Positions 3,660 through 57,074 of a stretch of 64,000 nt of DNA are shown in pieces. Position 1 is the first letter of the stretch, and every line of letters begins with the position of its first letter. The translations under genes were made by a program, and so were the position numbers. The notes under the pieces are model-generated. The model saw only the letters and a list, made by a program, of their open reading frames with translations, did not search any database and was not told the DNA's origin. This stretch comes from a virus. The stretch lies in the IMG/VR virus record IMGVR_UViG_3300037805_000894; one strand, given 5' to 3'.

Positions 3660-5564
3660 ATGGCGTTTGAATTACAAGAAGGGTCTTTAGGACATACAAT
3701 CTTTATGGATAAATATGCATATCCAGGAGAAACAAGCTGGAGAGAATGCGCTAAGCGAGTAGCTCGCACGGCAGCCGATCCAGAGTTCCCAGAAGATAGG
3801 GAAAAAATACAGCAAAAATTCTACGAAACTATAAACGCAGGTGACTTTTGTCCTGGAGGTAGGATTCTTTTTGGATCGGGACGTAGTAACCAGAATTTAC
3901 TAAACTGTTACGTACTCGATCCAGAAGACTCGGTGGAGAGTATAGGTAAAACAGTTTCAGACATGTATAAGATATCCTGTGGAGGAGGTGGCATAGGCTT
4001 CAACTTCTCTAAGATTCGCCCTAAAGGGGATGATATCCAGAACATACGTAACTCTGCTCCTGGCTCTATTTCAGTAATGCGCATGATTAATGAGATAGGT
4101 AACCATGTTAGAGCTGGAAAGAATAGACGTACGGCCTTAATGTCTATTCTTAATGTACACCACCCAGATTTCTTGGAGTTTTTGCATGTTAAGCTCGACC
4201 GTGATGAACTGAATAATTTTAATATCTCAGTAGGTATCACCAATCGATTTATTGAAGCCGTTGAAAAAGATGAGGAATGGTATTTTACTTTTGGTGGTAG
4301 GCAGAATAAGTATTTTATGTATGAAATTCAGCGCCAGTCGGAGGGAGGTAACGATACCATAGAAATCGTTGCTAAGAACGAAGAAGACGCAATTGGAAGA
4401 GCCAGCACTCACCACCTTAAGCATTTTGGAGATACCTTTGAAGGCGTAACAAAAAAAGAGATAATGGCTAGAGAACTTTGGCAGCGTATCGTGGATAACG
4501 CTGTTGAATCCGGGGAGCCCGGGATCTTTAATATTGATTTCGCCAATGAGTACACTAATGTTTCTTATTTTGAGTACATGCCTTCCACTAACCCATGTGG
4601 GGAGGAAGTTCTGCCTGCTTACGGAAACTGCTGTCTCGGTCACGTTAACTTAGCTAATATGGTAATGGAAGATGGAAAAGTAGATTGGGGGCGCTTAAAA
4701 CGCACCATTAAAGTAGGTGTACGTTTTCTAGATAATGTACTCACGGCGAATCACTTCCCTATTCCAGAGTGTAGCGAAGCTGGAAGCAGGTCGCGCAGAA
4801 TAGGTTTAGGTGTTACAGGATTACATTACTTCTTAATTAAAACCGGTTATAAATATGGCTCAGAAGAATGTCTAGAAGAAGTAGCTAGGTTATTTGATAC
4901 GATTAGAAATGAAGCCTATAAAGCCTCGATGCGCCTTGCGAAAGAGCGAGGCAGTTTTCCAGAATACGAATGGACAAAATTAAAAAATGAAAAGTTTTTC
5001 AAGACACTTCCTTCCCATATACGTTCAGACATTAAAAAGAATGGGCTACGCAATGCTGTCCTTCTTACTGTTGCACCTACTGGTACAATAAGTATGGTGC
5101 TCGGCGTTTCAACAGGTTTAGAGCCTATCTTTGCTCCTGTTTACAAAAGACGGTGGCGTACAGGAAGCGAGAATGTTTGGAATGAGACAATTGTGCTCGA
5201 TCCTTTATTCGATGATCTATTAAGTAAGAATAAGTCCGTAGAGCATATCGTAGGCGCTTATGATGTATCCCCAGAAGAGCATATTAAAATGCAAGCTACT
5301 GTGCAGAAATATATTGACTCTGCTGTATCTAAAACGTGTAACTTACCCGCTGATTTTACTCCAGATACTCTTTATAACGAGTTATTAACTTTTGCTTCTG
5401 ACATTAAAGGTTTTACCTTCTATAAAGCAGGCTCAAGGGGCAATGAACCCCTGGAAGCCTTGAGTTTAAAAGATATCAATTTAGACAAGTTAAGGAAGGA
5501 CGGTAAAATAGAAGCGCAGGTTGAATTTGTGGACTCCTGCAAAAATGGAATATGTGAATTATAG
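3660..5564 (+). CDS. nrdJ: class II (adenosylcobalamin-dependent) ribonucleotide reductase
   Basis: PGGRIL, NCYV, GGGIG, TNPCGE, RRIGLGVTG, VAPTGTIS, C-terminal CKNGICEL; no ATP cone and no adjacent nrdB. Confidence 0.92.
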   Translation: MAFELQEGSLGHTIFMDKYAYPGETSWRECAKRVARTAADPEFPEDREKIQQKFYETINAGDFCPGGRILFGSGRSNQNLLNCYVLDPEDSVESIGKTVSDMYKISCGGGGIGFNFSKIRPKGDDIQNIRNSAPGSISVMRMINEIGNHVRAGKNRRTALMSILNVHHPDFLEFLHVKLDRDELNNFNISVGITNRFIEAVEKDEEWYFTFGGRQNKYFMYEIQRQSEGGNDTIEIVAKNEEDAIGRASTHHLKHFGDTFEGVTKKEIMARELWQRIVDNAVESGEPGIFNIDFANEYTNVSYFEYMPSTNPCGEEVLPAYGNCCLGHVNLANMVMEDGKVDWGRLKRTIKVGVRFLDNVLTANHFPIPECSEAGSRSRRIGLGVTGLHYFLIKTGYKYGSEECLEEVARLFDTIRNEAYKASMRLAKERGSFPEYEWTKLKNEKFFKTLPSHIRSDIKKNGLRNAVLLTVAPTGTISMVLGVSTGLEPIFAPVYKRRWRTGSENVWNETIVLDPLFDDLLSKNKSVEHIVGAYDVSPEEHIKMQATVQKYIDSAVSKTCNLPADFTPDTLYNELLTFASDIKGFTFYKAGSRGNEPLEALSLKDINLDKLRKDGKIEAQVEFVDSCKNGICEL

Positions 5565-15384: not shown

Positions 15385-18162
15385 GTGGCTATTAATTTAT
15401 TAAATATAGAAGACTATATTATACAACGTATAAAGGAGGTAGCTCCGGACGTAAATACTGAGCCAGGCAGCGCTATACGCGATCTCTTGGTTTCTCCCAT
15501 GATTACAATTCTACAGCCTTTAGCTAACGAAGTGCATCGTGTTAAAAAATCACAAAGTCTTTTAAACGCCACTGATTTATCAGATGAAGATATTGATGCT
15601 ATTTTAGCTAATATATTTATTGATAGAAATGTAGGCAGTAAAGCCCGAGGTATAGCTACTATTATTCTGCGGCAGCCTCAACGCGTTTATGTGCCGCAAG
15701 GAACTGTTTTTACAGGTGTGGGCGGGTTAAAGTACTATAGCACACAGTCGGTGGATAAAGGTCCAGCAGCTTTTACTGTTAATTTTGTAACGGGCCGCTA
15801 CGAAGTAGATGTACCTGTAGAAGCTTCTAATGCAGGAAGTGTTTATAATATAAACGCGGGAGAAATTACAGGTGTTGTCCTGAGCGACTCTAATGTACTC
15901 AGCGCTGTCTGTAAAGAAAGTTTTGTTGGTGGAGAAGTGCGGGAAAGTAGTGAAGCTTTGTTAGATAGAGCTAAAAGTAGCTTAGGGTCCAGAGACCTTT
16001 CGACAAAGCGAGGAGCTGTTGACATATTAAAGAGTACTTTTCCTGAGATACTTTCTGTTAATGTTGTAGGTTTCGGAAACGATGAAATGCTGCGCGATAT
16101 AATTTATGCTCCAAGTTTAAGTATAGACGGGATAGCATATCCTGAATCCGAAGGAGTTCATTTAGGCGGAAAGATAGATATTTATAGTACAATAGGCTTA
16201 ACAGAGCACGAAGTTGAAATAGCGAATCTTTCTGATATCTCGACTTTCGGCTTAAACCGCATAGGCTTATATACGGAAGGAGATAATCCAAATATTCTTT
16301 ATGAAGGAAGCTCTAGCGAATGTGGTGTAACAGAAAAACCGTTAATGGAGATAAAGTCCGTTGAAATAGCTCAATCGTCGAAAGATGCTATTCCAGGCTT
16401 AAGCACAGTTTTTTTGCGCGAAGACTTTGATTATACCTTTATTACACCTTCTCCTGGTCTAAATAATAGTATGGAAACCACACGAGAGCTGAGGTTTATT
16501 AGAGGCACAGGTACTATTCATGCTTCTTCAGTTAATAAATTTAGTTTAGATGATCTAGGCGCTATTAGTTTTTCGTTAGACAAAAATGATCAACTCTATG
16601 TTAGAAGCTCCAATAGCTCACAAGCCTTACTAATAATTGGTGTAGATGAGAGTGAAATCGACAGCTTAAAATTATTTAAGCATGATTTTGGGTCTACAGA
16701 CGGAGGTTCGTCTCTCTTTATCACTCCCTCGCAAAAGCTTGTTAGTAGTGATAGCGAAGACCCTAGCAGTCCCTTAATGAGAGGTGTACATGTTATCGCA
16801 GGCGGCAATTATTTACCCAATCTTTTATTAAACTCTACTAAAGGCTTTAGCATTACTGGTTGGTTTAATTTGGCTTCTTTGCCTGCCGTTGGCAGCAAAC
16901 ACACACTCTTTAATACATTTACGGATATAGGTCAAGACCCTTTACTGCCTGACTATAGGGATGTTTTAGATATATACGTAGATTCTGATGGCTATATTAA
17001 TTATAACACCATAAGTAACGGGTATGCGCAAGAGAATAAGACAAAAACACCTATCTTTAAAGATTATGTAGACGCAGATATGTCAGAGGCTAATTGGGTA
17101 TTTATAAGTTTTATTTATGATATAATTCGGGATAAAAAAATAATATATTTTTCTAACATACAGAATACAGATATTTATGAAGTGCCTCTTGATTATGCTA
17201 CTTTTTCATTAGCGCCTATACATAATTCGACAATGGTGGCTTCTATCAGTATAGGTACGGGTTTAAATAGTGAAACAAGCGCAACGACTATTTATAATGG
17301 TTTAATAGATGGGCTTCAGTTCTATGGAACGCCTCTTTCTTTCGTCGAAAATCAAACAATCAAAAAAAATCAAGGCTCTTTAAATACTTATGGTTTAGAG
17401 GATTCTGCTTTATGTAATATTCCAGAAGCGCTCGAGGCTATTTTTGATCAGTATCCAGGTTACGGTTTATTAGGAGGTCAAATTCTAATGCTTACGGGAG
17501 GAGCAGCTGGTAATGTATTTGCTGTCACAGACTGCGTAACCCCCTTTATTAACGATGGAAGGGCGCTTGATATAACAATAACAGGGACAGGCTCTTGCCC
17601 AGTTACAAAAATAAAAGATGATGACAGATATGCCTTTCTTCCGGCTCCGCTTTATATAAATAACCAAAAGCTTACAACTAATTTATTGGGCGATATAGAA
17701 TACGGAAATACCTTAACAACTGAAGGAGAAATTCCTATAGGTGTGGGTGTAAAAATTATTTATGACGCAGCAAAGGACATAAGTGATATACAAGATTTTA
17801 TTAACTTAAATGACACAAGGCCAGCAAATGCTGATATCCTCGCTAAACACACAGCGCCTATTTATGTAAGTGGTAGTATAGATATAGCCACGGATCAACT
17901 TATCTCATCTGAAGAGTTAAAAGAAGAAGTTAATAGATATATATATTCTATAGGCACTGGAGGTGCCTTCTCTATAGTAGCCCTTATTAATCATTTATTC
18001 GAGGCTAATATAAAAGGATTACGCTTGCCTCTTGATGAATTGGTCTTCACCTCAAGAGACATTTATTTTAAGCGTGTAGTTATCGAAGGCATCGAAGATG
18101 AAGTACAGGCGGGTAATTCACAGTACTTTGTCATGGCTGATTTAGTTATCAACGTTCTATAG
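15385..18162 (+). CDS. baseplate J-like wedge protein with inserted LamG-like domain
   Basis: PGSAIRDLL, R..GSKARG, VPQGTVF, VEASNAGSVYNINAGEI, GGEVRES; internal FSITGWFN...WVFISF...IDGLQFY. Confidence 0.8.
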   Translation: MAINLLNIEDYIIQRIKEVAPDVNTEPGSAIRDLLVSPMITILQPLANEVHRVKKSQSLLNATDLSDEDIDAILANIFIDRNVGSKARGIATIILRQPQRVYVPQGTVFTGVGGLKYYSTQSVDKGPAAFTVNFVTGRYEVDVPVEASNAGSVYNINAGEITGVVLSDSNVLSAVCKESFVGGEVRESSEALLDRAKSSLGSRDLSTKRGAVDILKSTFPEILSVNVVGFGNDEMLRDIIYAPSLSIDGIAYPESEGVHLGGKIDIYSTIGLTEHEVEIANLSDISTFGLNRIGLYTEGDNPNILYEGSSSECGVTEKPLMEIKSVEIAQSSKDAIPGLSTVFLREDFDYTFITPSPGLNNSMETTRELRFIRGTGTIHASSVNKFSLDDLGAISFSLDKNDQLYVRSSNSSQALLIIGVDESEIDSLKLFKHDFGSTDGGSSLFITPSQKLVSSDSEDPSSPLMRGVHVIAGGNYLPNLLLNSTKGFSITGWFNLASLPAVGSKHTLFNTFTDIGQDPLLPDYRDVLDIYVDSDGYINYNTISNGYAQENKTKTPIFKDYVDADMSEANWVFISFIYDIIRDKKIIYFSNIQNTDIYEVPLDYATFSLAPIHNSTMVASISIGTGLNSETSATTIYNGLIDGLQFYGTPLSFVENQTIKKNQGSLNTYGLEDSALCNIPEALEAIFDQYPGYGLLGGQILMLTGGAAGNVFAVTDCVTPFINDGRALDITITGTGSCPVTKIKDDDRYAFLPAPLYINNQKLTTNLLGDIEYGNTLTTEGEIPIGVGVKIIYDAAKDISDIQDFINLNDTRPANADILAKHTAPIYVSGSIDIATDQLISSEELKEEVNRYIYSIGTGGAFSIVALINHLFEANIKGLRLPLDELVFTSRDIYFKRVVIEGIEDEVQAGNSQYFVMADLVINVL

Positions 18163-19186
18163 TTGTTATAGGTAAAAAGTAAGAAGCTGCGAGTAATCTT
18201 ACCATCTCGTTTTTGCTCGTACTGGCTATTCTTTTGAACTGGTTTTGCGTAAGCTTGCTCCTTTTAAATTTACTGTAAGCTTTAACTGACTTTCTAGTTA
18301 GCCTTATAGCCCCTCCTTGCTGAAAAGCCTCACATAAACATTTAAGATCCATCAGCTCAAAATGCTCCCCACAAGCGCGTAGTGCTATTTTATTATTAAT
18401 AAAGTCAATAATGGACACTCTTTTGTCTCTACTGATAAAAGGTATTATTTGAGGGTAGAGTAAAGCAGCTACTACCGTTGGACCTACAATCTGCATATAC
18501 CACGCGAACTTCTGAGGCGCTGTTACATAAACATAAGGCCCGAAGCAGTTTACAGCAAGCTGTTCATTTTCAGTATGGAAAGGCACCAAAATATTAGACA
18601 GTATATTTATAAAGTAAGTGTGCGATCTATAAACCTGCCTTGTATACTCATCAGGGCGCTCCTTATAATAAACTGTTTCTTTAAGCACTTTAGATTGTAT
18701 ACATTTTGTCGGTTCTTCTAGAGGAGTGTAAGTAAATATATCAGGAGTATTCATGTTGCAAACAGCTATAGAGCCTAAACGAGCTCTATGTTTCAGAAAA
18801 CGCACGCATAGTTTCACATGTTCTATATATTGTGTTGGTACTTCATCATAGTCAATCTTAGACAGCACACTTTCGATAGATGTCACTGCTACGCTTAAAC
18901 TATTAAAAGGGTTAGCTGTTCCCTTGCAGGTATCTAATAGAGTAATATAGTCTTCCAAAGACACAGCGGGAGAACCGCCTACGCCTATCGTAATTTCTTC
19001 AAGCGTCGTAGCTCGTAGAACTAAAGCGTTAGTTATTCTTATACACTTCTGCGCCTTTGGTATTAAAGATGCAAGGGTTTTTAAAGAGTCATCGAAAAGC
19101 TGTTGATTATCTGTACGCAATAAAAAGTTTATATCTTTATTAATGTTCCACCGATACAGATTCTTCTTTTTAGTTACTGTTTCCAT
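18149..19186 (-). CDS. hypothetical protein, opposite strand to the structural genes
   Basis: 345-aa ORF; CATAAT box 5 nt before ATG. Confidence 0.65.
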   Translation of the reverse strand: METVTKKKNLYRWNINKDINFLLRTDNQQLFDDSLKTLASLIPKAQKCIRITNALVLRATTLEEITIGVGGSPAVSLEDYITLLDTCKGTANPFNSLSVAVTSIESVLSKIDYDEVPTQYIEHVKLCVRFLKHRARLGSIAVCNMNTPDIFTYTPLEEPTKCIQSKVLKETVYYKERPDEYTRQVYRSHTYFINILSNILVPFHTENEQLAVNCFGPYVYVTAPQKFAWYMQIVGPTVVAALLYPQIIPFISRDKRVSIIDFINNKIALRACGEHFELMDLKCLCEAFQQGGAIRLTRKSVKAYSKFKRSKLTQNQFKRIASTSKNEMVRLLAASYFLPITTIER

Positions 19187-19242
19187 ATGATATTATGCCA
19201 TGACTTTCTAAGTATTTATGTAATTGCTATAATAAATGTAGA

Positions 19243-28895: not shown

Positions 28896-29405
28896 TCAGT
28901 ATAACTGAGCCTTCACCTTCTTCCAGTACTTTTTAGTACTGGTTTTCAACGGCCCCCTTGGGCCGCCATTGTGCGTCCGGGCGATTGTCGCCCAATCACC
29001 CTCCTCCCAGGCCTGGGGACAGTATCGCCCCATGTACGCGGAGATTATCTTCTCCGCATACATCTTGTCCCGGCAGTCTTGGTAGACTCCCGAGCCAACT
29101 TTGGCCACCGCATCTTGCCAATAAGCAAGATGGATCTGGTAAGGTCCTATGGCCTTACCGTCATCCCCATCGGGGGGTGTTAGCGATCCACTCGCCTCCA
29201 CCTCCCATAAGGCCTCCAAGAAGGCCTCATGTGTTACCTGTGTCACCTGTGGTGCCTGGGTGGGCCACGCCACCTGTGTTGCCTGTGTTGGCCCCACTAG
29301 CATGGACACAAGAAAACCTGTGGCTATGCCCAGTGCGTATAAGATGAGGCCAAACCTCAGCTTCTGCCGCTTCAGTGAGCGGAATTTTGGGAAGAATACT
29401 TCCAT
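28896..29405 (-). CDS. invertebrate-type (destabilase-like) lysozyme with N-terminal membrane anchor
   Basis: ALWEVEASG, GKAIGPYQIHLAYWQDA, YMGRY, IARTHNGGPRG, YWKKVK; SD AAGGAGG. Confidence 0.8.
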   Translation of the reverse strand: MEVFFPKFRSLKRQKLRFGLILYALGIATGFLVSMLVGPTQATQVAWPTQAPQVTQVTHEAFLEALWEVEASGSLTPPDGDDGKAIGPYQIHLAYWQDAVAKVGSGVYQDCRDKMYAEKIISAYMGRYCPQAWEEGDWATIARTHNGGPRGPLKTSTKKYWKKVKAQLY

Positions 29406-29455
29406 TTTTTACCTCCTTGGTAAACGTTTACACCAGCGAATTGCTGGATATTTAT

Positions 29456-29484
29456 TTATACCAAAAAAAGAGATCTAAATTTAG
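29456..29484 (-). promoter_or_regulatory. repeated phage promoter, copy 1
   Basis: CTAAA-N17-GGTATAA. Confidence 0.75.
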
Positions 29485-29513
29485 CAAAAAAGCCGAGTCC
29501 AATTAAGGACCCA

Positions 29514-29578
29514 ATTTATAAAAGTAAAAAGATTAATATATTTATAAAAGTAAAAAGATTAATATATTTATAAAAGTA
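29514..29578. repeat. 26-bp tandem repeat, 2.5 copies
   Basis: Unit ATTTATAAAAGTAAAAAGATTAATAT. Confidence 0.9.
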
Positions 29579-29596
29579 GTTTCTTGTTTTAGTCAT
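29516..29596 (-). CDS. 26-aa hydrophobic mini-protein MTKTRNYFYKYINLFTFINILIFLLL
   Basis: SD AAGGAG and TAATG coupling to the upstream mini-gene. Confidence 0.45.
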   Translation of the reverse strand: MTKTRNYFYKYINLFTFINILIFLLL

Positions 29597-29739
29597 TATT
29601 TCTCCTTAGATGACTTTTTAGGGAATAAAAGAAGTTGTTGACCTTCTTTCTTTTTAGTTTTTGATATATCCTCGTTTAACATCTTTGGTAAATACTTTTC
29701 GATAAGAGCACTGATATGTTGGGGGGCGGACTCTTTCAT
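29596..29739 (-). CDS. 47-aa mini-protein with a QLLLF clamp-binding-like motif
   Basis: SD AAAGGAG; MKESAPQHISALIEKYLPKMLNEDISKTKKKEGQQLLLFPKKSSKEK; has its own promoter copy. Confidence 0.65.
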   Translation of the reverse strand: MKESAPQHISALIEKYLPKMLNEDISKTKKKEGQQLLLFPKKSSKEK

Positions 29740-29785
29740 GTTAACTCCTTTGTTAAATGTACGTAAACATTTTGCTTACATTCTT

Positions 29786-29813
29786 TTATGCCTAGTAAAG
29801 CTGTCTTTTTTAG
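29786..29813 (-). promoter_or_regulatory. repeated phage promoter, copy 2
   Basis: CTAAA-N16-GGCATAA. Confidence 0.75.
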
Positions 29814-29814
29814 C

Positions 29815-29973
29815 AAAAAGAAATTTCAATATAATGTGTGTAATTTATCAAAGCGATCAACTTTGTTAAAAGGTTACCTATTTAACTAGGAAGGAGAATA
29901 CCTTAAATTAACAGCCATTACCTTACCAAACTAGTATTTGTAAGTTAATGAAATTTCTACTCATTTCTGAGTA
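29815..29973 (-). ncRNA. putative structured ncRNA A
   Basis: Promoter upstream, 5' hairpin, nested stems closed by AGAAATTTCA/TGAAATTTCT, then a U-run; no credible ORF or SD. Confidence 0.6.
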
Positions 29974-29978
29974 TTAAT

Positions 29979-30006
29979 TTATACCTAGTAAAACTGTATT
30001 TTTTAG
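29979..30006 (-). promoter_or_regulatory. repeated phage promoter, copy 3
   Basis: CTAAA-N16-GGTATAA. Confidence 0.75.
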
Positions 30007-30054
30007 CAAAAAAGAGAGGCCACATAAAATGCAATCTCTCTCAAGGAGCCTCTG

Positions 30055-30417
30055 TTAACGCTTGATGTTAACTACCCCACCTACCTTTGCAAAGGTGTTA
30101 ATAAGCTGTATTTCCAGCTTAGTGCGCTTGCGGCGTTTATACCTTTTATTGGCAGGAATAGGTGGGTTCACCAGCCCTACCGCTTCCGCCATCTTGATAG
30201 ACGTAATGGGAATAGTGTTCCCCTCTGATAAGAGGGTGGCTTCTGTATGAAGCTCCGCATCGGCTAACAAACTCAGCAGCTCCCTGCCTTCAGCAGCCTC
30301 GGCAAGGGTCACCTCGAAGGTACCCTTCTTTAAAGCTTGGTGAATAGCTGTGTAGTGGGAACTACACAACCCTCGTGTCTTGGCTGCTTTACTGCAGCCC
30401 TTAAATTTACATTTCAT
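30055..30417 (-). CDS. hypothetical protein with N-terminal C-x4-C...C-x2-H zinc-binding motif
   Basis: MKCKFKGCSKAAKTRGLCSSHY; basic C-terminus; SD AGGAG. Confidence 0.7.
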   Translation of the reverse strand: MKCKFKGCSKAAKTRGLCSSHYTAIHQALKKGTFEVTLAEAAEGRELLSLLADAELHTEATLLSEGNTIPITSIKMAEAVGLVNPPIPANKRYKRRKRTKLEIQLINTFAKVGGVVNIKR

Positions 30418-30467
30418 GTTGTGTCTCCTAAAAGGAAAAGTATCAGACAGAAGAGCCTGATACTATT

Positions 30468-30495
30468 TTATACCTAGTATATGTATTTTTTTTAA
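30468..30495 (-). promoter_or_regulatory. repeated phage promoter, copy 4
   Basis: TTAAA-N16-GGTATAA. Confidence 0.7.
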
Positions 30496-32321
30496 TGCGT
30501 ATCTGCCCAATTACTGCCTACCTTATACTCACCTGTCATAGGGCAATCTAAGCCTAATATATCAGTAGTATCTTCTATGCATTTCACAGCTATACGTCCT
30601 ACCTCATCGGCAAGATCTTCCCTAGCTTGTATCTGTACTTCATCATGTATATGCCCTACTTGTTGTACCTCTTTAGGTGTCCAGCCTCGTTTGGTGAATT
30701 CGGCGTCCATTAAAACAGTAGCTTGTTTCATGATTACCGCACCAGCTGATTGAAGTAATACATTAAGCGCAGCATGCATAGCTCTAATAGGCAAAGGCCT
30801 ACCATCTAAGCCACGGATATATCCACGACGATTAACAGTAATTTCCACTTCTTTCATAAGCTTCTTTAAGCCTGGTAAAGTTTCAAAGAATTTCTTTTTA
30901 ATCTTTTTACCATCAACAGCAGTACCTCCCATAATACTACCGATCTTGGCGTCACCTGCGCCATAATTAAGAGCATAGATAAAAGTCTTAGCTTGGTCTC
31001 TAGTGTCAAGACCAGCTGCTTTTTGATTAGCTGTATGAATGTCTCCACCCAATACCTCTTTTACATAAGTACCTTGATCCCATTTATACGTATAATGAGC
31101 TAAGCACCTTAACTCCAAGCCAGAGGCATCACAACCTATTAATTTATAACCCTCAGGCACAACAAAGAGCGATCTGCACTCTTTACCATATGGAGCACGT
31201 ATAGCAGGCACTTGACCCATGTTTGGATTTGAATGGCTACATCTTCCAGTAACTGTACCGTTGTGATTAATACGGCCATAAATACGCCCATCTTTTACAG
31301 ACTTAAGCCATGCTTTTGCGCCATCAGCTAACTGCCCTAAACGTTTAGTAATCATTAGGTATTCTCTGAATAAAGCTACTTCAGGATAATCTAAGTCTTT
31401 AAGAGTCTCCTCATCAATCTTAGGCTTACCTGTTGCTGTTTTTTCAGTAGGCTTCCAATTGTATTTCGCCATTAAAACAGCGGCTACTTGATCTCGGCTA
31501 CCTGGATTAAAAGGTGCTGTCTTGGCTTTAAAAGGACCTGGTTTTAAACTACCTCTAATGCTCTTAGGAGCAGAGCCTTTGTTAGTATATCTAGTATCGA
31601 AGAAGCCTTGATCGTCTAACCAATATTCGGGCGTTTTAAGATAAGTTACTATAGGAGGAAAGCTCTCCTCCAAGTTATATTGAATATCCTTTTTCTTTCG
31701 CAATAAAACTTGATGTAGTTCTTGGGCTGCCTCCCAATCGAAATGCCACCCATGGGCCATTTGTTTTTCCAAGACCCTAAAAAAGGCATGCTCTAACTGA
31801 CAAGCTTGTTCCGGTATATCCCTTAGGTGTTCCCAAAGCTTTAGATTAACTATCGTATCCTGTACGCAATACAAACCCATTTCTTCTGAGTAATTAGTCC
31901 AATCACTATTTTTACCAAAGTCACCTTTAGCCTCATCTAAACGATGGCCCCATGCTTCTAAACCGTGTCGTCCCCATAACTTAGAAGGAATACGCCTTTC
32001 CTCTTCGTCCTCATTAAATACATCACTATGCTCTACACGAGCCATAATCAAAGTATCTCTCACAAGACCCTTAGGCCTCCACTCAGGATAAATCTTTTGA
32101 ATAGCTGGTATATCAAAATTAATAATATTATGTCCTACTATAGTATGAGCATTAGCTACGATATCTAAACCTTCTTCGATTCTATCAGGACCGAAGAGCT
32201 CAGATTCGCCATTTTCTAATACCACAGCAATACAATGTACCTTAGTCATTGAGGGTATGAGTCCATCGCTTTCAATATCGAAAACAAGGGTTTTATCTTT
32301 TACATTTTCAAGCGTAATCAT
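30492..32321 (-). CDS. polA: family A DNA polymerase, T7 gp5-like, with 3'-5' exonuclease
   Basis: FDIESDG, GHNIINFD, YCVQD (Exo I-III); DASGLELR, RDQAKTFIYALNYG, HDEVQ (A-C). Likely start is ATG 32321, 6 nt after TATAAT. Confidence 0.95.
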   Translation of the reverse strand: MITLENVKDKTLVFDIESDGLIPSMTKVHCIAVVLENGESELFGPDRIEEGLDIVANAHTIVGHNIINFDIPAIQKIYPEWRPKGLVRDTLIMARVEHSDVFNEDEEERRIPSKLWGRHGLEAWGHRLDEAKGDFGKNSDWTNYSEEMGLYCVQDTIVNLKLWEHLRDIPEQACQLEHAFFRVLEKQMAHGWHFDWEAAQELHQVLLRKKKDIQYNLEESFPPIVTYLKTPEYWLDDQGFFDTRYTNKGSAPKSIRGSLKPGPFKAKTAPFNPGSRDQVAAVLMAKYNWKPTEKTATGKPKIDEETLKDLDYPEVALFREYLMITKRLGQLADGAKAWLKSVKDGRIYGRINHNGTVTGRCSHSNPNMGQVPAIRAPYGKECRSLFVVPEGYKLIGCDASGLELRCLAHYTYKWDQGTYVKEVLGGDIHTANQKAAGLDTRDQAKTFIYALNYGAGDAKIGSIMGGTAVDGKKIKKKFFETLPGLKKLMKEVEITVNRRGYIRGLDGRPLPIRAMHAALNVLLQSAGAVIMKQATVLMDAEFTKRGWTPKEVQQVGHIHDEVQIQAREDLADEVGRIAVKCIEDTTDILGLDCPMTGEYKVGSNWADTH

Positions 32322-32384
32322 TAAAGTATTATACCCACTTAAAGGCAAAAAAATAGAGAGAAGTATTAACCTCTCCCTAGTGAA

Positions 32385-32989: not shown

Positions 32990-33136
32990 AAAAAGATTAG
33001 TAGTATGTCCAACAATGCTGAGTACAGCATTAGATTATCAAACGCTATTCATAGGCATTATGTTTAATCTTGTCAGGAATATTAAGCATTGCTGACGTAA
33101 CCACTAATCTTTACAGGCATGTTGCTTGTGCAACCT
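32990..33136 (-). ncRNA. putative structured ncRNA B (four-way junction)
   Basis: Promoter upstream, 5' hairpin, three internal hairpins closed by a 13-bp stem, then a U-run; G-U pairs work only on the minus strand. Confidence 0.65.
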
Positions 33137-33479: not shown

Positions 33480-33735
33480 TACTCCTATTTAAGGTTAAAG
33501 AAAAAAACAGGCAGATGAATCATCCTGTTTCGTTGGGGTTAGTTATCTTACCCACCTGACCCAACTATCTCCTTGCAGGAGTAGTTTTATTTAGCTTCCC
33601 CCCATAGGGATCTAAATTTACCTTTTACCTTCATCCAGTAATATACATACTTACATATGTTACATATGCACGGTTTCACCTCCTTTCGGAACGCTCTGAG
33701 CTTAAGATCTGTTTATACTCGCTCAGACGAGTTAT
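33480..33735 (-). promoter_or_regulatory. structured 5' leader or ncRNA C with SD-led minigene and anti-SD
   Basis: GGTATAA box at 33741-33747; about six hairpins; AAAGGAGGTGA-N4-GTG CAT ATG TAA. Confidence 0.55.
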
Positions 33736-56663: not shown

Positions 56664-57038
56664 TTAAAATAGTGAGAGTATGTATTTACGATCTCTGAGC
56701 CTGAACCGCCTATGGTTATAGACATATTCAGCCACGCTATCGCATAATTCCTCTTCCTCTTCGAGGGCGAGGTCGAGGTCGCTTTCGGCGATGCTTGCAT
56801 GAGTTACCTCATGCAAGCATGTGAGTACTGTATCGTACTCACTCAAGCCGCTATTGACCCAGACTGGGCGCCCTTTTAAGGTGGTGTAGCAAAGGCCATA
56901 TAGGCCTTCGCCTACGACCTTATGCAGTGCATCATACACAGCAGAGACTGCTCCAAGGAAGCCCCCAACTACGAGGACATTTTCACCTCGTACTCTCTCT
57001 AGGACTGTCCTTCTTAACTTTCTTAGGTTTTTTGTCAT
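56664..57038 (-). CDS. small HExxH metallopeptidase-like protein
   Basis: LYGLC, CLHEVTHA, EEELCD; promoter TTAAA-N17-GGTATAA at 57045-57073. Confidence 0.6.
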   Translation of the reverse strand: MTKNLRKLRRTVLERVRGENVLVVGGFLGAVSAVYDALHKVVGEGLYGLCYTTLKGRPVWVNSGLSEYDTVLTCLHEVTHASIAESDLDLALEEEEELCDSVAEYVYNHRRFRLRDRKYILSLF

Positions 57039-57074
57039 ATTAGTTTATACCAAAAAAAGGTGTTATAATTTAAC

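Follow-up and report, generated by a model that had tools for sequence, protein, structure and literature searches.

A probable conserved structured RNA beside the DNA polymerase gene of an uncultured marine large phage

Little is known about the small RNAs of phages, and hardly any have been described from uncultured marine large phages. Among the known phage small noncoding RNAs (ncRNAs) with their own promoter and terminator are the stable small RNAs of T4 and the Pseudomonas phage sRNAs, which were mapped by end-mapping RNA-seq. Here, we asked whether an ORF-free stretch between two putative promoters of an uncultured large marine phage is the gene of such an RNA and, if so, what the RNA might do. 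The candidate, termed RNA A, is like these phage sRNAs in being a short, ORF-free, separate unit that lies inside a cluster of phage genes, opens with a 5' stem-loop, and closes with a 3' stem followed by a U-run. Unlike them, it matches no catalogued family by sequence or model, and its 3' stem is a long-range helix that closes a three-way junction, not a local terminator hairpin.

The locus and its promoter cassettes

The window, by which we mean the whole 64,000-nt stretch of DNA analyzed (IMG/VR record IMGVR_UViG_3300037805_000894), derives from a phage whose lysozyme gene is also found on contigs of up to 158 kb. Among its genes are those for a family A polymerase and for a baseplate J protein (contigs of about 155 kb), and the phage encodes a sigma-factor-like protein. 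All genes in the neighborhood of RNA A are on the minus strand, as is RNA A itself, and the cluster that runs from the polymerase gene to the lysozyme gene is convergent with a plus-strand ORF of 3135 aa. The RNA A region, near the polymerase gene, has a GC content of 27%. The features of the locus and the lineages in which we looked for it are listed in Table 1.

Table 1. Features of the RNA A locus and lineages compared (positions refer to the window unless a contig is named)
Feature	Positions	Strand	Remarks
Family A DNA polymerase gene	30492-32348	minus	first in cluster order
120-aa protein gene	30055-30417	minus	between polymerase gene and RNA A
Putative promoter copy driving RNA A	29978-30009	minus	TTGCTAAAAAA-N-TAGGTATAAA; bipartite TAAA-N15-18-GGYATAA
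RNA A unit, ORF-free	~29815-29973	minus	third in cluster, after the 120-aa gene
5' hairpin UACUCA-GAAA-UGAGUA	29958-29973	minus	abuts P1 directly, zero-nt linker
P1 5' arm GAAAUUUCA	29949-29957	minus	pairs with 29820-29828; possible 10th pair uses 29958
Junction J1/2 UUAA	29945-29948	minus	same in lineage B; GC in lineage C
P2 hairpin CUUAC/GUAAG	29922-29944	minus	13-nt loop AAAUACUAGUUUG at 29927-29939
Palindrome ACUAGU in P2 loop	29930-29935	minus	
P3 domain	29831-29921	minus	longer arm of the three-way junction
P3 base helix GUAAUG/CAUUAU	29916-29921 with 29831-29836	minus	
P3 inner hairpin	about 29865-29886	minus	
P1 3' arm UGAAAUUUC	29820-29828	minus	pairs with 29949-29957
U-run, five U	29815-29819	minus	runs into the upstream part of the next promoter; presumed 3' end
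Next putative promoter copy, driving the 47-aa ORF	29785-29816	minus	downstream limit of the RNA A unit
47-aa ORF	29596-29739	minus	after RNA A; behind promoter copy 29785-29816
Destabilase-type lysozyme gene	28896-29405	minus	last in cluster
RNA B	32990-33136	minus	z -4.08
Lineage A	window		identical unit in L022 and L023
Lineage B	L019:7640-7806		near-identical in L028, L029 and L030; polymerase 60% and lysozyme 41% identical to A
Lineage C	L018, L032-L039		polymerase 73% identical; mostly TARA Oceans and other ENA marine assemblies
Lineage E	L031, 137-kb contig		polymerase 54-55% identical

RNA A sits exactly between two exact matches to a 32-nt pattern, where 0 would be expected by chance. 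The bipartite motif within this pattern was found 8 times in the window against 0.83 expected (about 10-fold enriched), and all 8 copies are intergenic, on the minus strand, and upstream of minus-strand units. From this position and repetition, we infer that the motif is a promoter; it does not have the form of a canonical sigma-70 site. Two of the copies lie outside the island, one at 19193-19218 (minus) upstream of a 345-aa ORF (18149-19186) and one at 57045-57072 (minus) upstream of a 124-aa ORF (56664-57038).

Much of the surrounding design is shared by the whole region. A 5' hairpin follows every promoter copy in the window, including those in front of protein genes. Likewise, a stem with a T-run precedes every next promoter, and the cassettes of the region are generally joined by a stem with a T-run and then GCTAAA. 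An inverted repeat with a T-run is also found upstream of the promoter of RNA A itself.

Some 240 nt downstream of RNA A, in the stretch that separates the 47-aa ORF from the lysozyme promoter, there is a perfect 26-nt tandem repeat of 2.5 copies (29514-29578; unit ATTTATAAAAGTAAAAAGATTAATAT, plus strand), which could be iteron-like or a repeat RNA. Several public assemblies (L024, L025, and L027) end 138 nt upstream of the lysozyme start, in or at the edge of this repeat.

The fold of RNA A and its relatives

The closing helix, P1, is the longest perfect long-range helix in the unit. It encloses about 120 nt and is perfect over 10 bp (29819-29828 / 29949-29958), of which 9 bp are unambiguous and contain a single G-C pair; base 29958 is also part of the 5' hairpin. 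A helix of 10 bp was reached in 18 of 1000 dinucleotide shuffles. For the minus strand, the minimum free energy (MFE) was -34.7 kcal/mol (z -2.68), and none of 200 shuffles folded as well, while the plus strand gave a z of -1.56. Taken alone, this single-sequence evidence is modest, i.e., suggestive and not decisive. What decides the case for RNA A is its relatives.

These results bear on an earlier note made from the window sequence alone. Its central proposal, a promoter-flanked, ORF-free, structured RNA that fills the gap between two promoters, was confirmed and can now be assigned to the minus strand. The perfect 10-bp closing stem that it described is indeed complementary, with the ambiguity at one end given above, and the 5' hairpin (TACTCA/TGAGTA) and the U-run are both present. 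Among its nested stems, CUUAC/GUAAG (our P2) and TAATG/CATTA (our P3 base) held, whereas the others are partly alternative pairings that do not all occur in the MFE fold. Shuffle controls, which it had named as a check, favored the fold on the minus strand only. Its caution that AT-rich DNA forms short stems by chance was well placed, as the 10-bp helix in 1.8% of shuffles leaves the single sequence no more than suggestive.

Database searches did not assign RNA A to a known family. With Rfam 15 at gathering thresholds, the only match in the whole window was a Pistol ribozyme at 33674-33732. At 29300-30600, with E values of up to 10, Rfam gave two noise matches, CRISPR-DR7 (19.9 bits), which adjoins the 26-nt tandem repeat, and Flavo-1 (15.2 bits). 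ARAGORN called 0 tRNA or tmRNA genes in the window. The locus had no blastn match among 50,697 phage records, and an exact 36-nt pattern had none in IMG/VR.

Close relatives were sought by protein searches with the polymerase and the lysozyme, and very few were found. Polymerase-based scans of IMG/VR and GTDB yielded relatives that are at most 56% identical, mostly on contigs of about 35-40 kb, without an RNA-like copy of the P2 loop; the few matches to a 10-nt loop pattern in these relatives fall on the opposite strand and inside or close to the polymerase match. Lysozyme-based scans gave one unrelated locus in IMG/VR and, in the metagenome collection, only another copy of lineage B.

At the syntenic site, lineages B and C each have an ORF-free unit built like RNA A. 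The gene order shared by the three lineages is polymerase, an optional single gene, the RNA, optional genes, and lysozyme. In lineage B, the polymerase gene is followed by one gene and then by the ORF-free unit between two promoter copies, with the lysozyme gene further downstream; in lineage C, the RNA unit comes directly after the polymerase gene. The 5' hairpin joins P1 with a zero-nt linker in all three lineages, and the layout of a U-run that passes into the next promoter recurs in B and C. The longest ORFs in the unit are 13 (A), 14 (B), and 3 (C) codons and have no ribosome-binding sites. As no ORF is common to the three versions, we rejected the reading of the unit as a conserved peptide gene.

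P1 is perfect in each lineage, with 9-10 bp in A, 10 bp in B (AGAAGACUUC/GAAGUCUUCU), and 14 bp in C (AAAUAAACUUUUUC/GAAAAAGUUUAUUU), and the three sequences are unrelated. The B and C lengths were reached in 8 and 0 of 1000 shuffles, respectively. The P2 loop, on the other hand, is kept: it reads AAUAACUAGUUCA in lineage B and GAAUACUAGUUCA in lineage C, which gives the consensus RAWWACUAGUUYR in all three lineages with an invariant WWACUAGUUY core. Across about 120 loci (885 kb), this core was found in an RNA-like context in these units only. A third arm follows P2 in both B and C. P3 is much shorter in lineage C, and in lineage B its base helix and inner hairpin are retained with compensatory changes. 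Sense-strand z scores were -2.79 (B) and -4.61 (C), against -2.13 and -1.55 for the antisense strands.

A covariance model built solely from the sequence in the window missed the relatives with default filters and found them with the filters off. Lineage B scored 33.4-40.5 bits (E of 2.6e-5 to 5e-7; 40.5 bits for a variant) and lineage C 16.9 bits, in each case as the top match in the locus. When the 20 base pairs that make up P1, P2, and the P3 base were scored across the three lineages, 96.2% of cells were paired, compared to 43-52% when the 3' partners were slid by 1-3 columns. Both sides had changed in 11 of these 20 pairs, and 0 of 500 shuffles reached these values, in an alignment that was itself fitted to the model. 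For P1 alone, 100% of cells were paired and 7 of 9 pairs had changed on both sides. From an alignment of A and B made independently with MAFFT, RNAalifold returned the same P1, the same P2 with its 13-nt loop, and P3, including the inner P3 hairpin with compensatory changes (GUUAAA/UUUAAC versus GUUAGA/UCUAAC). A MAFFT alignment of all three lineages was left out, as the short lineage C sequence was misaligned. R-scape or another formal covariation test needs far more than the three distinct lineages available.

Across the lineages, the shape with three helices is maintained, P1, P2, and P3 co-vary, and folding is strand-specific. A lack of structural conservation in relatives, which was part of the refuting condition in the earlier note, was not borne out, as the structure is kept in lineages B and C. 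Taken together, we believe that RNA A is probably a real, conserved small structured RNA of a marine large-phage clade, from a family not yet catalogued.

Within lineage C, the RNA is identical across 8 contigs and the genes just downstream vary (an ankyrin protein or others), which implies that the RNA travels with the core genome and not with the cargo. These sequences part about 10 nt past the U-run, inside the upstream part of the next promoter, and the site just downstream of the RNA marks a hot spot for accessory cargo. The genes found there between the RNA and the lysozyme gene (e.g., L032:5075-5750) encode ankyrin-repeat or unrelated 134-151-aa proteins.

Lineage E has no room for RNA A between polymerase and lysozyme and gave no match to the covariance model. 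About 5 kb upstream of its polymerase gene, three tRNA genes were seen (L031:743-1078, plus). Judged by gene tables alone, gaps of fitting size occur in lineage D and in further lineage C contigs (475, 325-346, and 327 nt), and a protein search with the upstream gene of lineage B matched only lineage D.

A second unit without an ORF, about 165 nt long and likewise flanked by two promoter copies, is found in lineage B (L019:7830-8000, plus). It occupies the slot of the 47-aa ORF, and its 3' end is a GC-rich hairpin with a T-run (GGCCC..GGGCTGTAGTTTTT). Also in this lineage, the lysozyme of L028 is called as two pieces of 55 and 100 aa (4791-5303), while the near-identical L019:8046-8558 is one 170-aa gene; the split stems from an assembly error or else from a variant with a frameshift or stop.

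How RNA A might act

Our preferred reading, which we hold with about even confidence, is that RNA A is a separate minus-strand ncRNA gene of about 145-160 nt whose three-way junction acts in trans through the invariant P2 loop. Transcription would start a few bases past the GGTATAAA element at 29978-29985, and the first 16 nt would form a hairpin stacked directly on P1. This hairpin is probably a general 5' stabilizer because a hairpin of this kind opens all transcripts from this promoter type. P1 would pair the 5' and 3' ends of the RNA and, together with the U-run, likely provides the 3' end and its protection; transcription presumably terminates at that U-run. With P1 and P3 as a stable scaffold, P3 being the longer, lineage-variable arm, the short P2 hairpin would display its 13-nt loop as the working part. 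The loop may then recognize a partner by loop-loop (kissing) pairing, and the candidate partners are a second copy of RNA A (a homodimer), an RNA target that carries ACUAGU, or a loop-reading protein.

We favor an action in trans because the ACUAGU core of the loop is self-complementary and includes a YUNR-type CUAG. YUNR-type sequences are typical of the recognition loops of antisense RNAs, and the antisense and kissing-loop RNAs include CopA/CopT, RNA I/RNA II, hok/sok, and the dimerization initiation site of HIV-1. RNA A is like these in having a stable hairpin whose loop contains CUAG in all lineages and self-complementary ACUAGU, a resemblance of sequence only, and the loop is its only invariant part, as expected of a recognition loop. 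Unlike them, its loop has 13 nt versus the classic 6-9 nt, and we identified neither a target in the window nor a complementary partner within the RNA that is consistent across the three lineages. The loop could pair with a conserved YUWAGUUA on the 5' side of the inner P3 hairpin in lineages A and B but not in C, which leaves a conserved intramolecular partner inconsistent across the three lineages. As a kissing contact, a 6-bp AU-rich palindrome would be weak. Matches to the P2 loop elsewhere in the window reach only 7 nt, which is chance level, and Pfam scans of 25 window proteins showed no RNA-binding or processing partner. A resemblance to ACTAGG, which precedes the -10 element of the promoters in the window, was also considered for the loop and was dropped, as it is absent in lineage B.

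Another known RNA that invites comparison is the phi29 pRNA, in which two different, mutually complementary loops build a ring. RNA A belongs to the same size class (about 120-170 nt) and likewise has a 5'/3' end helix and a central three-way junction, and intermolecular contacts through its loop are plausible. Unlike pRNA, it has one palindromic loop and no second complementary loop that is consistent across the three lineages. Its genome differs as well, since phi29 has a protein-primed family B polymerase and about 20 kb, in contrast to the family A polymerase, baseplate J protein, and ~155-kb contigs found here. A pRNA-like reading fails on the second loop and on the genome type.

The main rival to a trans-acting RNA is a role in cis as a leader, attenuator, or insulator, to which we assign a distinctly lower probability. 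Here, either stopping at P1 and the U-run or reading through would tune the downstream genes, or the unit would insulate the polymerase operon from the lysis genes. P1 is AU-rich, closes about 65-120 nt, and was not called by a terminator scan; it is not the compact, G+C-rich hairpin with a 3-8-nt loop of a canonical intrinsic terminator, although a U-run is present. Read-through is thus possible at this weak, non-canonical terminator, and the unit always lies between the replication genes and the lysozyme gene, in a region where a stem with a T-run and GCTAAA is the usual joint between cassettes. Against a cis role, the downstream unit has a promoter of its own right after the U-run in all three lineages. 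The gene behind that promoter is the 47-aa ORF in A, the second ORF-free unit in B, and an ankyrin or other gene in C; because it differs in every lineage, there is no conserved gene for a leader to regulate. A leader dedicated to the downstream gene is also disfavored by lineage C, where the RNA is invariant in eight contigs ahead of differing genes. For plain insulation, moreover, an invariant 13-nt loop and a three-way junction would be superfluous. It is improbable, in our view, that the unit works instead at the DNA level, with ACTAGT and the inverted repeats as an operator, replication origin, or recombination site. ACTAGT is a perfect DNA palindrome, the AT-rich region adjoins the polymerase gene and has the 26-nt tandem repeat nearby, and in lineage C a mosaic boundary lies just past the unit. 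However, the transcribed strand folds clearly better in 3 of 3 lineages, and the G-U pairs in several helices would become A-C mismatches if the opposite strand folded. P1 has changed its sequence wholly and yet keeps its pairing and its position by the promoter-proximal hairpin and the U-run, and ACTAGT is not enriched in the window (13 found versus 21.6 expected).

Two further readings we consider very unlikely, and about equally so. One is a retron-like template RNA (msr-msd-like) used in trans by a reverse transcriptase (RT). The size is similar, and two hairpins, one short and one long, within a closing inverted repeat (P1, 9-14 bp) recall the arrangement of a1/a2, msr, and msd; such terminal repeats are not specific to retrons. 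However, no conserved G stands right after the 5' arm of the closing stem: UUAAC follows P1 in A and B, A has its first G 18 nt further on, and a G is nearby only in C. The neighbors in all lineages are polymerase, small ORFs, and lysozyme, with no RT gene adjacent. At its end, the unit has a U-run that leads into the next promoter, and its conserved part is a loop and not the branch-point region. The other is an undescribed class of self-cleaving ribozyme. Small ribozyme genes tend to cluster, a Pistol ribozyme (60.2 bits) with the same promoter type lies 3.7 kb away and is also present in lineage B, and a three-way junction is a common ribozyme scaffold. But RNA A matched no Rfam ribozyme model at E values of up to 10, and unlike Pistol, hammerhead, twister-sister, and hatchet, it has no conserved core nucleotides in its junction. 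The junction strands vary between A, B, and C (UUAA, UUAA, and GC; none, AU, and AUA; AU, none, and AA), and the sole invariant stretch is a hairpin loop without a consistent pairing partner. The least probable reading of all is that these are chance stems in an AT-rich spacer between duplicated promoters. A single-sequence z of only -2.7 and 10-bp long-range helices in ~2% of shuffles would allow it, but the architecture and the loop recur at the same place, with compensatory changes, in lineages whose flanking proteins are only 41-73% identical.

A bolder form of the trans-acting reading seems to us rather unlikely, a shade below a role in cis. RNA A would found a new phage RNA family in which the palindromic loop drives self-association, or in which the RNA is a decoy or antisense effector against a host function, and it would be one of several structured RNAs, together with RNA B and with Pistol and its downstream RNA, that the clade expresses from a dedicated promoter cassette system, which probably depends on a phage sigma factor. 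If it is true that the loop mediates RNA-RNA assembly or targets a host function, this would be a new functional class of RNA. Otherwise, RNA A is still a well-supported new RNA family. In either case, a single window gives an RNA gene with a putative promoter, a conserved three-way-junction fold, and one invariant loop, which is a handle for experiments.

RNA B and the Pistol ribozyme

The earlier note had further proposed that RNA A and a second unit, RNA B, form a functional class on the strength of their shared design. The design itself is real: RNA B, too, follows a promoter of this type, bears a 5' hairpin, is closed by a long-range stem, and has a 3' tail rich in pyrimidines. It is, however, largely the design of the cassettes, as two of the three features shared by A and B are generic to the expression cassettes of this phage, and the proposed class has only partial support. 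RNA B differs in that it has no ACUAGU loop and in that its own best fold departs from this three-way junction. With the RNA A family model, RNA B (32990-33109, minus) was the best non-self match in the window at 20.5 bits (E of ~0.03), which is near noise, and the alignment to the model disagrees with the minimum-energy fold of RNA B. Given the weak score and the disagreeing fold, common ancestry or function of A and B is not established.

RNA B has a counterpart of its own in lineage B (L019:4200-4375, plus). It has the same 5' start, TATCAG.AA.GAAGGTTGC; a long-range stem of 13 bp (GAGAATCAATAGC / GCTATTGATTCTC) closes it, and its tail is rich in C. RNA B thereby looks like a second conserved RNA of the phage clade. 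The presence of Pistol, RNA B, and RNA A under one promoter type suggests that this clade invests in unusually many ncRNAs.

The Pistol self-cleaving ribozyme (RF02679) is on the minus strand and starts within ~10 nt of the GGTATAAA element. Its copy in lineage B (L019:778-837, plus) is weaker, with 35.3 bits, just over the gathering score. In the window, Pistol is followed by an ORF-free, hairpin-rich RNA of ~170 nt that extends to a terminator-like hairpin and T-run near 33495-33530. This arrangement suggests a ribozyme-processed small RNA that would carry a 5'-OH end.
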